Assembly (NCBI GenBank): GCA_944391835.1
Contig: CALXVA010000001.1
Coordinates: 3,897 to 67,896 of the forward strand
From: an uncultured Clostridia bacterium
GTDB taxonomy: Bacteria > Bacillota > Clostridia > TANB77 > CAG-508
Direction: 5' to 3'
DNA: 64,000 bases
Shown: piece after piece, positions 18,744 through 36,107 of the stretch
How positions within the stretch are numbered: the stretch's first letter is position 1
Layout: each line of letters starts with the position of its first letter
Notes under the pieces: generated by a model
What the model saw: only the letters and a program-made list of their open reading frames with translations
Told to the model about the DNA's origin: nothing
Databases searched by the model: none
Translations under genes and position numbers: made by a program

Positions 18744-18776
18744 CGTGGACAAAAAGGAGTGTCCCCTTTGTCCACG
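18744..18776. repeat. REP-like element family 2 (GTGGACAAA..GGAGTGTCCCC..TTTGTCCAC hairpin)
   Basis: cGTGGACAAAAAGGAGTGTCCCCTTTGTCCACg; other copies at 27328, 32119, 32194, 35998, 36076. Confidence 0.8.
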
Positions 18777-18784
18777 TCTGCTAT

Positions 18785-19222
18785 CTACTTTAACTCTTTT
18801 CTATTATTTTGTATTATTTTTAGGGCATCTTCTAGTGCCACTTCAATTCCTGCTAAAATGCCATCTGCATATTCCTCGGTTCCACTTTTTATTTCTCTTG
18901 ACATCTCATTTGCTGTCTCTATTATTTCTACTTTCTTCTCATAAGCTTTTTTAGTAATCTCATGTTCATCTATCATAGATATAATTCTATTTTCTGCTTC
19001 TTTAATTATTTCATCAGCTTCACTCTGAGCTTCAACTAATATTCTTTGTCTTTCTTCTTTTATCCATTTTGCTTGTTTTAGTTCATCAGGTAATTTTAAC
19101 CTTACTTCTTTTATTATATCTAAAATATCATCTTTATTTACTATGCATTTACTTGAGAATGGTACTTTTCTACTTTTATCCAGCATATCTTCTAATGTTT
19201 CCAATAAAGTAAATATTTCCAT
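18785..19222 (-). CDS. hypothetical coiled-coil protein (145 aa)
   Basis: ORF downstream of rsmD; helical Glu/Lys-rich; no confident family assignment. Confidence 0.4.
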   Translation of the reverse strand: MEIFTLLETLEDMLDKSRKVPFSSKCIVNKDDILDIIKEVRLKLPDELKQAKWIKEERQRILVEAQSEADEIIKEAENRIISMIDEHEITKKAYEKKVEIIETANEMSREIKSGTEEYADGILAGIEVALEDALKIIQNNRKELK

Positions 19223-19226
19223 AATT

Positions 19227-19787
19227 TTACTCCTTTCGACTTAAGAATATTAGATAAACTCTGCCATATTTTCTTAAATCATATACTTCTACTTGTAACT
19301 CTTCTAATCCTTTTAACTCTCTTTCTTTTTCATCTGTTTCTATTATTATAATTCCATTTTTTCTTAATAAATCCAAAGAAATAATTTGGTCTACTGCTTT
19401 TAAAGCCAAATCATCCTTATATGGTGGGTCTATAAACACAACATCTATTTTAACATTTTCTTTTTGAAGTTCTTTTAAACACTTTTTATAGTCTTCTTCA
19501 TATACTTTAGATTTATCTAAAAATTTAGTTTTTTCAAGATTTTTATATATCATTTGAGTTGCTTCGTGAGATTTTTCACAAAAAAATACTTTTTTTGCAC
19601 CTCTACTTAAAAATTCTATTCCTATTGCTCCACTACCAGCAAATAAGTCCAGAGCTATACAACTTTCAATTTTTTCCCTAATTATATTAAATAAAGATTC
19701 TTTAACTCTATCTAAAGTTGGTCTTGTTGCAAGACTATCGATTGAATATAACTTTGTTCCTCTTGCTATACCACTAATGACTCTCAT
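19227..19787 (-). CDS. rsmD: 16S rRNA (guanine966-N2)-methyltransferase RsmD
   Basis: motifs LDLFAGSGAIGIE and VFIDPPY. Confidence 0.8.
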   Translation of the reverse strand: MRVISGIARGTKLYSIDSLATRPTLDRVKESLFNIIREKIESCIALDLFAGSGAIGIEFLSRGAKKVFFCEKSHEATQMIYKNLEKTKFLDKSKVYEEDYKKCLKELQKENVKIDVVFIDPPYKDDLALKAVDQIISLDLLRKNGIIIIETDEKERELKGLEELQVEVYDLRKYGRVYLIFLSRKE

Positions 19788-20010
19788 AACTACCTCTACT
19801 GATATATCATATATATATTTTATATTTTATTTTTTATATGTCAATATTTTTTACACAAATGTAATATTTATTTAACAGTTTTGTAATACTGTTATATTTC
19901 TGTAATATTACGCATAATACTTCGTATGTATTATATAATAAACTTTCAAGATTGTAAAGTTATTTATATACTATAAAAAGCTAGGTATATACCTAGCTTT
20001 TGTAAATCTA

Positions 20011-20463
20011 TTAATCATCTTTATTTACATCTTTTATTAACTCTAATTGAGATATTAATAGTGATTCCATTTTTGCTTTATATACATCAAATTGTTTCTT
20101 TAGGTCATCTAATTCTCTTGTTCTAATTGATATTTGTTGTTCTAGTTCCATTAATTGATTCTTTGCTGTTCCTTGTGCATCTCTTACTATTTGCTCTGCC
20201 TCTTGTTTTGCTACTTTTTTTATTTCATCAGCAGTACTCTGAGCCATTACTAAAGTATTTTGCAATGTTGATTCGATATTTTTATATTTTACAAGACTAG
20301 CTTCTAATTCTGATATTTTACCCTTATTTTCGTTTGATTCTTTATATAGCTTTTCATAGTCTACTGTTAATTCATCTAAAAAGTTATCTACCTCTTCTAC
20401 ACTATATCCGTTCATCATTTGTTTTGCAAATTTTTTATTCTCAATATCCAATGGTGTGTACAT
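20011..20463 (-). CDS. divIVA: cell-division protein DivIVA
   Basis: N-terminus YTPLDIENKKFAKQMMNGYSVEEVDNFLDEL matches the DivIVA lipid-binding domain, followed by coiled coil. Confidence 0.8.
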   Translation of the reverse strand: MYTPLDIENKKFAKQMMNGYSVEEVDNFLDELTVDYEKLYKESNENKGKISELEASLVKYKNIESTLQNTLVMAQSTADEIKKVAKQEAEQIVRDAQGTAKNQLMELEQQISIRTRELDDLKKQFDVYKAKMESLLISQLELIKDVNKDD

Positions 20464-20495
20464 ATTGTCCCCCCTAAGCTCTTTATATAACTATA

Positions 20496-33716: not shown

Positions 33717-33747
33717 TACTTTATTCCAAACAAAATTACTACAATCT

Positions 33748-34749
33748 TTATTTATTTGCAATATACAATGCTAAATCAACTAATTTATTTGAGTAACCCC
33801 ATTCGTTGTCATACCATGCAACTAATTTAACAAATGTATCTGTTAAAGCAATTCCTGCTGCTGCGTCAAATATAGATGTGTGTGGATCACTTATAAAGTC
33901 TGATGATACAACTGGTTCATCTGTATATGCCATTATGCCTTTCATTTCATTTTCACATGCTTTTTTAACTGCATTACATATTTCTTCATATGTTGCAGGT
34001 TTTGCTAAATTACATGTTAAATCTACTACTGAAACATCTATTGTTGGTACTCTTAATGACATACCTGTTAATTTTCCATTTAATTCTGGAATAACTTTTC
34101 CTACTGCTTTTGCTGCTCCTGTTGTAGATGGTATAATATTTGCTGCTGCTGCTCTACCACCTCTCCAGTCTTTTTTAGATGCTCCGTCAACTGTTTTTTG
34201 TGTTGCAGTTGTTGAGTGAACTGTTGTCATTAAACCATCTTTAATTCCAAAGTTATCATTTATAACTTTTGCAAGTGGTGCTAAACAGTTTGTTGTACAA
34301 GATGCATTTGAAATTATATTCATATCTGGAGTATATGTGTCATTATTAACTCCCATTACAAACATAGGTGCATCTTTAGATGGTGCAGAAATTATTACTT
34401 TTTTTGCTCCTGCATCTAAGTGTGCCTGTGCTTTTTCCATTGTTGTAAATACACCAGAGCACTCTAATACGTAGTCTATTCCATCTTTTCCCCAAGGAAT
34501 ATTTTTTGGGTCCATTTCATTATATACTTTTATTTCTTTTCCATTTACTACTAATTTTCCTTCTTCAGCTGATATTGTTCCGTTAAATCTTCCATGAACT
34601 GTATCATATTTAACCATGTAAGCCATGTAATCTGCTGCTATAAATGGATCATTTATTGCTACTATTTCAACTCCTTCTCTACTTAATGCTGCTTGGAATG
34701 CAAGTTTTCCTATTCTTCCAAAACCATTAATACCAATTTTAATTGACAT
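33748..34749 (-). CDS. gap: glyceraldehyde-3-phosphate dehydrogenase
   Basis: [23 protein letters not shown] active site. Confidence 0.95.
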
Positions 34750-34925
34750 ATAAATTCCTCCTATCTTTATGCTAAAAATAGCATACTTTTTTTAGTATTA
34801 CCTAAACACTCTCATTTTATATCAATTTTTCATAATTTTCAAGTGTTTATTTATTATTTTACATTTATTTTACAATCAAAATGTAAAGAAGCACAAGTAA
34901 GTTTACGACTTATTGTGCTTCTTTA

Positions 34926-35183
34926 TTATAATTCAATATTATCTGTAATTTTAATTTCTTTAAATAAAAAGTTTTTTACCTTTTCTCCAGTTATTTCATA
35001 GAATAAGAAATCATGAACTTTTTCTCCTGTAATTTCTTGTGTCCAAAAGTCATGTACTTCTTGAAAAACTTTTTCTTGCTTTGGTGTTAATTCAAGAGCT
35101 ATATCTTGGCATAAGAAATTTCTTATTTTAGTCCATACACTTACTTCTGTTGGTAAATTGTTTGAATTTACACGATTATCCAT
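34926..35183 (-). CDS. hypothetical 85-aa protein with tandem 14-aa repeat (EITGEKVHDFLFY/EITGEKVKNFLFK)
   Basis: strong RBS AAGGAGGA; occupies the position upstream of gap where cggR usually lies. Confidence 0.45.
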   Translation of the reverse strand: MDNRVNSNNLPTEVSVWTKIRNFLCQDIALELTPKQEKVFQEVHDFWTQEITGEKVHDFLFYEITGEKVKNFLFKEIKITDNIEL

Positions 35184-35367
35184 ATTTAACTTCCTCCTTC
35201 GTGGTCTAAATAATAATTATTACCATATTTATACTACATTTCTTTTTATAAATCAAGTAAAAAGTTTGAATATTATTATTTTAATTCTCTGTAATACTTT
35301 ATTTTTAAGCTTCTTCAAAATTTTTTACAATTTTATTACATGTTTGTTACAAAAATATTACATATAA

Positions 35368-35922
35368 TTATATTTCCATTTGTCTGCCTAAAAAAGTAGC
35401 TGCTGACTGTACAACTTTTTGCTCCACTTCAGACATTTTTGTGCTTTTGTCCTTTGCCAAAAGAATTACGGTTCCTATTGTATCTCCATCTGATATTATT
35501 GGGTATACTACTTGTGAATTGAATTTTCTTTCTCTATTATCATTTTTCGTAATTGGTACTGATATATCATTATTTTCTTTGCTAGTATATTTTTCTTTAT
35601 CTTCCATTATTTTTTCTAATTCTTCACTTATACCTTGCTCTAAAAATTCTTTTTTAGGTCCACCAGATACTGCTATTACTGTGTCTCTATCTGTTATACA
35701 AGCAATATGCCCGGTAGTTTTAGCAAGTGTCTCTGCATATTCTGTTGCAAATTCTGAAAGTTCACCTATAGGTGAATATTTTTTTAGTATAACTTCTCCC
35801 TCTTTGTCAGTAAATATTTCTAAAGGATCTCCTTCTTTTATTCTTAAGGTTTTACGTATTTCTTTTGGTATAACTACTCTACCTAAATCATCTATTCTTC
35901 TTACAACACCTGTTGCTTTCAT
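35368..35922 (-). CDS. spoVT: stage V sporulation protein T (AbrB-type N-terminal domain plus GAF)
   Basis: MKATGVVRRIDDLGRVVIPKEIRKTLRIKEGDPLEIF is near-identical to the Bacillus/Clostridium SpoVT N-terminus. Confidence 0.9.
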   Translation of the reverse strand: MKATGVVRRIDDLGRVVIPKEIRKTLRIKEGDPLEIFTDKEGEVILKKYSPIGELSEFATEYAETLAKTTGHIACITDRDTVIAVSGGPKKEFLEQGISEELEKIMEDKEKYTSKENNDISVPITKNDNRERKFNSQVVYPIISDGDTIGTVILLAKDKSTKMSEVEQKVVQSAATFLGRQMEI

Positions 35923-35997
35923 AATTTTCCTCCTTTTAAATTTTATGTCTATTCTTATTATTACAAAAGAGGAAAATTTTATTCAAGTTTTTTTAAT

Positions 35998-36107
35998 TGT
36001 GGACAAGAGGGACACTCCTTTTTATCCACACTTTAAATTTTTACATGATTTACTATTTATGATAGTGTAGTGACTGTGGGCAAGAAGGAGTGTCCCTCTT
36101 GTCCACG
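35998..36107. repeat. pair of REP-like family 2 hairpins (35998-36030 and 36076-36107)
   Basis: GTGGACAAGAGGGACACTCCTTTTTATCCAC and GTGGGCAAGAAGGAGTGTCCCTCTTGTCCAC with complementary loops. Confidence 0.75.

Follow-up and report, generated by a model that had tools for sequence, protein, structure and literature searches.

We studied a family of short hairpin repeats in a 64,000-nucleotide (nt) stretch of DNA from an uncultured Clostridia bacterium (contig CALXVA010000001.1 of assembly GCA_944391835.1; this whole stretch is called the window below). The window has about 29% GC and carries nearly every gene up to 60 kb on the minus strand. The repeats, called family 2 here, are the second of two hairpin-repeat families described in an earlier note on this DNA. 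We consider it very likely that family 2 is a repetitive extragenic palindromic (REP) family of the REPIN type, most likely spread in trans by a dedicated REP-associated tyrosine transposase (RAYT) of the HUH/Y1 type. The earlier reading was incomplete in that it did not recognise the element as a REP/REPIN family with a RAYT-like transposase. Family 2 is an ordinary, known sort of element, and it has already been reported that REPs can give stop codons or residues to flanking open reading frames (ORFs).

The consensus of the family 2 unit in forward orientation is GTGGACAAAAGGGACACTCCTTTTTGTCCAC, a near-perfect palindrome of 31-32 nt. When folded as DNA, the unit formed a stem of 14 bp, in which one position is G.T, closed by a loop of 3 nt; the free energy was -11.2 kcal/mol (z = -5.7) in forward and -9.9 kcal/mol (z = -4.0) in reverse orientation. 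Most of the 11-nt "loop" assumed in the earlier note was base-paired in this fold, so that its partition into stem and loop was off, while its description of a symmetric element with the apex in both orientations and with inverted pairs was borne out. The orientation of a unit is set solely by positions 11/21 and the three central bases. The 31-mer contains no stop codon in any of the six frames. A pattern made of the stem arms alone found five family 2 loci in the window, against 0.02 expected from dinucleotide shuffles. An nhmmer profile built from about 100 copies of related genomes gave exactly six family 2 matches in the 64 kb and no seventh copy.

All six copies lie where the earlier note had placed them, with offsets of 1-4 nt, and no two of the five 31-nt copies are identical. 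Two copies are single. One, in forward orientation (GTGGACAAAGGGGACACTCCTTTTTGTCCAC), is at 18745..18775 on the minus strand, 9 nt past the stop of a gene for a 145-aa protein and upstream of ftsK. The other is at 27332..27362 on the plus strand, in the gap that separates the eno 3' end (27421) from tRNA-Gln (CTG; 27251..27325, minus strand); the 5' end of this tRNA, at 27325, is 6 nt away, and the adjacency, also noted before, was confirmed. The remaining four copies form two inverted pairs, each arranged forward then reverse, with spacers of 42 and 46 nt. The first doublet is located between pgk and tpiA within the gap-pgk-tpiA-eno cluster. It consists of a tpiA-proximal arm at 32120..32151 (plus strand), a 32-nt variant with the apex GGGGACTACTGCC that we call sub-family B; a 42-nt spacer of non-conserved sequence at 32152..32193, which holds the pgk stop and a spurious tpiA ATG (32164); and a pgk-proximal arm at 32194..32224 (minus strand), which lies within the pgk frame and codes for VDKGDTPICP. 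The second doublet lies between a gene for a 662-aa protein and spoVT, with its left arm at 35999..36029 (plus strand) and its right arm at 36076..36106 (minus strand), 6 nt past the stop (36113) of the 662-aa gene. It folded as one long hairpin of -32.2 kcal/mol (z = -11), and doublets overall gave about -32 kcal/mol with z of about -10 to -11. A scan with Rfam models matched the tRNA alone and no RNA family at the family 2 repeats, and a search of a plasmid collection with the pgk-spoVT region returned zero matches.

The sub-family B type, with the GTGGACAAA stem but a different and longer apex, was also seen elsewhere: besides 32120-32151 of the window, it occurs at about position 1643 of the retrieved sequence L175, at position 4938 of L077 and in the tpiA-proximal copy of L082, the latter two belonging to related genomes introduced below (ML92 and HM72, respectively). 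The pgk-tpiA doublet is thereby a heterodimer of a sub-family B arm and a standard arm.

Restriction of the element to the window, which the earlier note had named as a finding that would refute its reading, was checked, and the element was found in other genomes as well. A single scan of GTDB species-representative genomes with a 22-base pattern gave 87 stretches, with fewer than one expected by chance. Nearly all of them were in a few related, AT-rich metagenome-assembled genomes (MAGs) labelled "uncultured Clostridia", plus three GC-rich MAGs. The AT-rich carriers were BRZ_GQ bin4 (GQ4), BRZ_MP bin58 (MP58), BRZ_ML bin92 (ML92), BRZ_CH bin9 (CH9), BRZ_HM bin72 (HM72) and OZ007016; over syntenic stretches the window is about 95% identical to ML92 and 92-93% identical to GQ4. 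By an exhaustive Hamming scan of the retrieved blocks, which gives lower bounds, there were at least 48 copies in GQ4, 27 in MP58, 19 in ML92, 8 in CH9 and 4 in HM72.

The pairs in these genomes have a strict geometry. In the AT-rich genomes and the window, 28 of 28 close pairs were arranged forward then reverse (30 of 34 among all pairs scored). Spacer lengths were 26-111 nt, most of them 26-51 nt and three close to 100 nt, and the sequences of the spacers were unrelated from doublet to doublet. The two arms of a doublet were identical in 16 of 28 cases (57%; mean 0.86 differences), and even rare variants were shared, whereas arms taken from different doublets were identical in 55 of 568 comparisons (10%; mean 1.83 differences). 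Such covariation is the signature that has been described for REPINs, REP doublets replicating as a unit.

Orthologous sites showed both retention and polymorphism. The 27332 copy has orthologues in ML92 (L039), GQ4 (L061) and HM72 (L082), and the second doublet has orthologues in GQ4 (L019), MP58 (L081) and ML92 (L078/L076). The apex type of the 32120 copy recurs in HM72, ML92 (L077) and L175. Presence/absence polymorphism was observed at the pgk-proximal copy, at the site 3' of the 145-aa gene, and at a solo REP in ML92 that lacks a RAYT gene. At the site 3' of the 145-aa gene, relatives of 97% identity have variant REPs, and no family 2 copy was present at 94% identity. We considered the 18745 copy as a recent lineage-specific insertion and rejected this, since the 97%-identity relatives have variant repeats at the same spot.

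Across all copies in L001-L087 and the window, the palindromic symmetry was seen to reach into the variable bases that flank the repeats. Among single copies, 26 of 55 had complementary bases at the second flanking position, where 14.4 were expected. For doublets, the outer flanks were complementary at positions 1 and 2 in 22 and 15 of 28 cases (14 and 7.5 expected), in contrast to the flanks of the individual doublet arms, which were not complementary. Such symmetry could stem from a palindromic target site, from a mobile unit larger than the repeat, or from doublets that collapsed into singles.

The gene associated with family 2 was found in the related genomes. In GQ4 (L026) and CH9 (L036), two inverted copies, separated by about 930-960 nt, enclose a 235-aa ORF. 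Four metagenome contigs (L088-L091) encode a 232-aa protein that is 94% identical to its product; both flanking repeats are visible in L088 and L090, and the left copy only in L089. As far as the contigs reach, the order of the locus is ruvA, rarA, forward repeat, a TTGACA/TATACT promoter, the gene, reverse repeat, and the 3' end of an SPFH gene, and the rarA-RAYT-SPFH context is constant in three lineages where neighbours are reached. No second copy of this gene was present in any retrieved block, these blocks being partial genomes.

The 232-235-aa protein matched Pfam Y1_Tnp with 41.5 bits (cut-off 23), and its score against the IS200 model, 27 bits, was far below the 77.5 bits obtained with NCBIfam REP_Tyr_transpos. 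In an alignment of 39 clade members, H63 and H65 of the HUH motif and Y123, within YIHNNPVKAG, were invariant. A single-sequence search of PDB gave no match; the clade profile alone reached one, 4ER8 (E = 3.4e-6), which is E. coli TnpArep bound to REP, with both the HUH and the YIxxNPVK motifs aligned. Relatives of the clade were found at no fewer than 529 metagenome loci at 32-54% identity, mostly on AT-rich gut contigs. Many of the 80 relatives examined (L092-L171) have flanking inverted repeats with a GGGGAC(G/A) core in variable, lineage-specific stems, and this shared core suggests a conserved recognition motif of the clade. Because the repeat, in the sister genomes, frames a Y1/HUH gene that scores just under the REP_Tyr_transpos cut-off and whose clade profile matches TnpArep, family 2 has the defining REP-RAYT association. 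That the protein would mobilise family 2 follows by analogy with the known biochemistry of its enzyme family.

Several points weigh against this assignment. The 64-kb window contains no cognate RAYT of family 2; its only RAYT-like gene (9713-10525) is 33% identical to the family 2 RAYT and is flanked by family 1 repeats. The closest sequenced relative, ML92, is without the family 2 RAYT at the syntenic locus. The REP_Tyr_transpos score misses the cut-off of 80 by 2.5 bits. With 232-235 aa against about 150-165 aa, the protein exceeds classical RAYTs in length, and it has a C-terminal extension, which contains a helix-turn-helix domain in some homologues. The classical unpaired 5' GTAG tag is missing, and GTGG is found instead in the stem, at both ends. 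Finally, the 8-kb blocks were picked by an exact pattern match, which inflates the apparent conservation of the stem, and the copy counts are minimum values.

The absence of the gene from ML92 could be traced at its site. The spacer between rarA and the SPFH gene (L056 7049-7079) holds a single repeat, GTGGACAAAAGGGAGTGTCCCTTTTGTCCAC, and no gene. This repeat is a hybrid: its left arm is precisely that of a forward repeat and its right arm precisely that of a reverse repeat. The site looks like a clean deletion of the RAYT gene between its flanking repeats. Fewer copies were counted in ML92 than in GQ4, and just one doublet was scored there, with the counts subject to ascertainment bias. It has been documented elsewhere that repeats decay slowly once their RAYT is lost, and the ML92 counts together with the divergent copies of the window fit such a decay, which is not proof of it. 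Since the closest relative lost the RAYT at the syntenic site, the window copies may likewise be orphaned, immobile and drifting relics. The sister genomes with the gene and the one without it at the same site offer a natural comparison for decay after transposase loss.

Family 2 resembles the REP/BIME-TnpArep/YafM system of E. coli and the REPINs of P. fluorescens in that a short, imperfect palindrome is found more often than expected in extragenic DNA 3' of genes. It shares with the Proteobacterial REP/REPIN-RAYT systems the inverted doublets with short spacers, the long hairpin and the covarying arms, as well as the fixed locus of a Y1/HUH gene with inverted copies and the retention of repeats after transposase loss. 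It differs in its host, an AT-rich (about 29% GC) uncultured Clostridia lineage, in the longer transposase with its C-terminal extension, and in its ends: there is no unpaired 5' GTAG tail, and GTGG is paired with CCAC. Because GTGG is paired and present at both ends, family 2 is outside the GTAG-tagged superfamily, whose families have been reported from Proteobacteria, Cyanobacteria, Chloroflexi and the PVC group. Research on REPIN-RAYT systems has so far been mostly on Proteobacteria, and RAYTs of Clostridia were noted earlier as Group 1. The present case adds a REPIN-like system from an uncultured Clostridia lineage whose genomes are small and AT-rich; its doublets keep a strict geometry, their arms covary, and it has a cognate transposase.

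A further likeness may be found in TIRtrons and their TIRYTs. In the parts of Di Nocera et al. 2013 (PMC3733652) on which we draw, these are described as RAYT-like genes flanked by non-GTAG inverted repeats that share GGGGWSAS; like family 2, they are moderately abundant as singles and dimers, and the protein is longer than classical RAYTs. As forms of GGGGWSAS, family 2 has GGGGACAC and family 1 has GGGGACAG. The window copies 18745 and 32194, like many copies of GQ4, carry GGGGACAC; the others, half of the family 2 copies, have only GGGACAC. The likeness is drawn from the repeats and the protein length. No Firmicutes example of a TIRtron was found in those parts of the paper. The IS200/IS605 elements share with the family 2 RAYT the HUH/Y1 fold family and the recognition of hairpin ends. 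The family 2 gene differs from them in occupying one syntenic site in three lineages, in being far outnumbered by its repeats, and in that no tnpB was seen with it.

We next consider where the copies lie relative to genes. In the AT-rich genomes, 92 of 113 copies were intergenic when scored against ORFs of at least 100 aa, in 16 a gene's 3' end ran through the whole repeat, and the others were ORF-start artefacts. Among 62 units with scorable neighbours, the two neighbouring genes were tandem for 32, convergent for 28 and divergent for 2, so that about 97% were downstream of a gene end, and the unit started a median of 2-10 nt past the upstream stop. Since the 31-mer is open in all six frames, it can be read as a protein end, and repeat-coded tails were found in at least 10 different genes of the sister genomes. 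The commonest, VDK[GR]DTPFCPQx followed by a stop, is read in frame 1 and ends seven genes for unrelated proteins. A conserved stop (TAG, 8 nt past the repeat) was considered as a feature of the element and rejected, as it recurs in several genes only. Family 2 is similar in this respect to intragenic or gene-end REPs and to the Rickettsia palindromic elements, frame-open repeats that add residues or a stop, and it differs from them in that it gives short C-terminal tails of 10-20 residues, not internal insertions.

The pgk gene (32186..33502, minus strand, 438 aa) is the case in the window. The end of its product, phosphoglycerate kinase (PGK), is ...KAMDVDKGDTPICPQR (in a longer stretch, ...CLTDKPEKEKKEGKAMDVDKGDTPICPQR), and the last 12 residues, VDKGDTPICPQR, derive from the repeat and the spacer. 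The earlier note had assigned 13 terminal residues to the repeat. The repeat origin of the tail stands, with different boundaries: MD is ancestral, VDKGDTPICP is encoded by the repeat, and QR and the TAG stop (32186-32188, minus strand) come from the doublet spacer. The comparison with orthologous PGK C-termini that the note had suggested was run on 120 relatives. The VDKGD..ICPQR ending was present only in relatives of at least 96% identity. At 90-95% identity, the tails are K/E-rich and unrelated to it (PEKTNCKACSAKTAEKSETIEK is an example), and at about 80% identity many of the proteins stop at ...CLTDK (414 aa). In a DNA alignment, HM72 has the tpiA-proximal repeat and lacks the pgk-proximal one, and its PGK ends in KAMDNTELSK. 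The pgk-proximal repeat starts right after KAMD in the window and ML92, and after KA in GQ4. Independently of the repeat, PGKs of the clade carry a poorly conserved K/E-rich tail of about 22 residues past ...CLTDK, often ending in IEK, which is missing in the 414-aa forms.

In the sense of the mRNA, the pgk-tpiA doublet folded with -56.6 kcal/mol (z = -8.2). The last 12 pgk codons and the stop lie inside this hairpin, which stops about 20 nt short of the ribosome-binding site of tpiA. The N-terminal extension of tpiA described in the earlier note is probably untranslated. A canonical start, MRKKVIAGNWKMN, lies 22 codons downstream, with GGAGAG 7 nt before it, and the upstream ATG, which lies in the doublet spacer, is missing from the HM72 orthologue. 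The extension is most likely an artefact of ORF calling, and tpiA probably runs from an ATG at 32098 (31349..32098, minus strand; ribosome-binding site at 32105-32110). As a secondary possibility, the recurrent VDK[GR]DTPFCPQ-stop tail or the hairpin that spans the stop may regulate translation; in E. coli, REPs close to stop codons are reported to stall ribosomes (Liang, Rudd and Deutscher 2015). Here, as for transcript ends, an effect of the repeats is something that we infer.

These observations are best explained by the following course of events. The 31-nt imperfect palindrome forms its 14-bp hairpin on single-stranded DNA or RNA, and units exist singly or as forward-then-reverse doublets able to form one long hairpin. 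The RAYT, encoded at its fixed locus (ruvA-rarA-[REP]-promoter-RAYT-[REP]-SPFH gene), would act in trans to spread the copies. Copies would persist where they do little harm, a few nucleotides past a stop and between co-directional or convergent genes. A copy that lands in dispensable last codons is read through, as the 31-mer has no stop. In pgk, a copy went in after ...KAMD, and VDKGDTPICPQR and a stop took the place of the end of a K/E-rich tail that is variable and non-essential.

The placement of the repeats raises the alternative that they are transcript-end elements selected by the host, either bidirectional intrinsic terminators or stabilisers of mRNA 3' ends, whose repetition reflects selection of a single efficient hairpin and not transposition. 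This would account for units starting so close behind stops and for the scarcity of divergent spacers (2 of 62). The flanks, AAA-N-Y[REP]R-N-TTTT, read as an A-tract, a hairpin and a T-tract, and the 18745 copy is terminator-like. Single copies between tandem genes are forward relative to transcription in 18 of 23 cases (p = 0.011), and it is the forward orientation whose RNA stem is paired throughout, with G.U as one of the pairs. Since genes here are oriented along with replication, insertion that is strand-specific with respect to replication could equally produce this bias. However, a simple terminator rule picked out one of the six window copies, and copies also lie inside operons (pgk-tpiA) and coding sequence. 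Convergence, moreover, fails to explain identical 31-mers at about 100 unrelated loci, rare variants common to the arms of a doublet, or a Y1 transposase framed by the repeat. We therefore judge an independent origin as transcript-end elements improbable; a role at transcript ends is plausible but unproven, and compatible with co-option of a mobile element.

Two further explanations deserve still less credence. The doublets might be conventional miniature inverted-repeat transposable elements, that is, deletion derivatives of an insertion sequence of the DDE type with the 31-mers as terminal inverted repeats, and the inverted 31-mers around an AT-rich core that is short and varies little in length (26-51 nt) have this appearance. 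The core sequence is, however, not conserved between copies, no direct target-site duplication was seen while the flanks show inverted complementarity, each "terminal repeat" is itself palindromic and also found alone, and the only gene framed by the repeats encodes an HUH/Y1 enzyme instead of a DDE transposase, which makes this origin highly improbable. Least probable of all is that the palindromes are binding sites of a host protein, such as a nucleoid-associated protein or the operator of a regulator, or DNA-uptake sequences in inverted pairs. In other bacteria, pairs of uptake sequences are placed downstream of genes, and the perfectly conserved arms GTGGACAA / TTGTCCAC and their position 3' of genes are reminiscent of these. 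Against this, the copies avoid promoter regions and are directly associated with a REP-type transposase, and no link to competence or to a regulator was seen in the window.

The three GC-rich MAGs (56-68% GC) found in the GTDB scan belong to Coriobacteriaceae/Coriobacteriales from rumen or gut. They carry a near-identical 31-nt repeat, GTGGACAAAAGGGATACTCCCTTTTGTCCAC, often adjacent or in tandem clusters, with at least 17 copies in one MAG. The stretches are from RUG11770 (L004, L014, L024, L025, L041, L048, L050, L057, L064, L069 and L075), RUG440 (L010) and S2M_St_18 (L054 and L067). Neither the clade hidden Markov model nor a motif scan found a RAYT in the blocks retrieved from these MAGs, none of the 120 best RAYT homologues had a GC-rich amino-acid composition, and a metagenome scan for the Coriobacteriaceae-type repeat gave 0 matches. 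One explanation is that the REP-RAYT system crossed phyla and founded new repeat populations, with convergence as the alternative. We regard such a transfer, which would call for a transposase closely related to that of the Clostridia, as rather unlikely; if true, it would contradict the view that REPIN-RAYT inheritance is almost exclusively vertical.

Family 1, the other hairpin-repeat family of the earlier note, is a nested palindrome of about 60 nt containing GGGGACAGG, with copies at 8213-8272, 9646-9707, 10694-10753 and 42000-42064. The inverted copies at 9646-9707 and 10694-10753 frame the RAYT-like gene mentioned above (9713..10525, minus strand). Its 270-aa product scored 64 bits against NCBIfam REP_Tyr_transpos and has a C-terminal helix-turn-helix-like tail. 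Because inverted family 1 copies frame this gene, we regard family 1 as the second REP-RAYT system of the genome. The claim that a family 1 copy supplies the end of the GH15 gene held, the copy providing its last four codons and the TAG stop. The GTG-initiated extension of disA fared differently. Its first 15 codons lie within a family 1 copy that ends in AAAGGAG, and since this site is just downstream of the repeat, the extension is probably an artefact of ORF calling. Three annotation oddities, the foreign 12-residue tail of PGK and the spurious 5' extensions of tpiA and disA, thus trace to one mundane cause, and because the repeats create them, annotators of related MAGs should mask the repeats before calling gene ends.

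Some further features of the window were observed. The sign of the GC skew changes near 60 kb; we do not take this as evidence of a replication origin, as the change marks a switch of coding strand (asnS on the plus strand, ribosomal-protein operon on the minus strand). A segment of about 150 nt at 18543-18731, in the spacer of the 145-aa gene and ftsK, is bounded by inverted repeats of 21-32 nt (CCTAGGYAGTATGTATATTTA...). It has the opposite orientation in L175 (about 1690-1880) compared with the window and L172 (about 1760-1960), an inversion polymorphism resembling an invertible DNA switch. Other long inverted repeats are found in the gap-pgk spacer, with 59-nt arms (33527-33585 / 33660-33718), and near 4 kb, where arms of 33-38 nt are nested (3967-4221); neither is related by sequence to family 1 or family 2. 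Repeats of a third family, roughly 130 nt in length (ATTGCTAGGAAA..TTTTTGAGAT..GTACATCGAAAAAATTTTTATGAAGTTTGACAACGCAAGA..) and without a match in Rfam, occupy intergenic gaps at 28848-28976, 45053-45181, 50781-50908, 52343-52428 and 57499-57626, and in inverted orientation at 51483-51600. Several of these copies lie inside the S10/ribosomal-protein operon on the minus strand.

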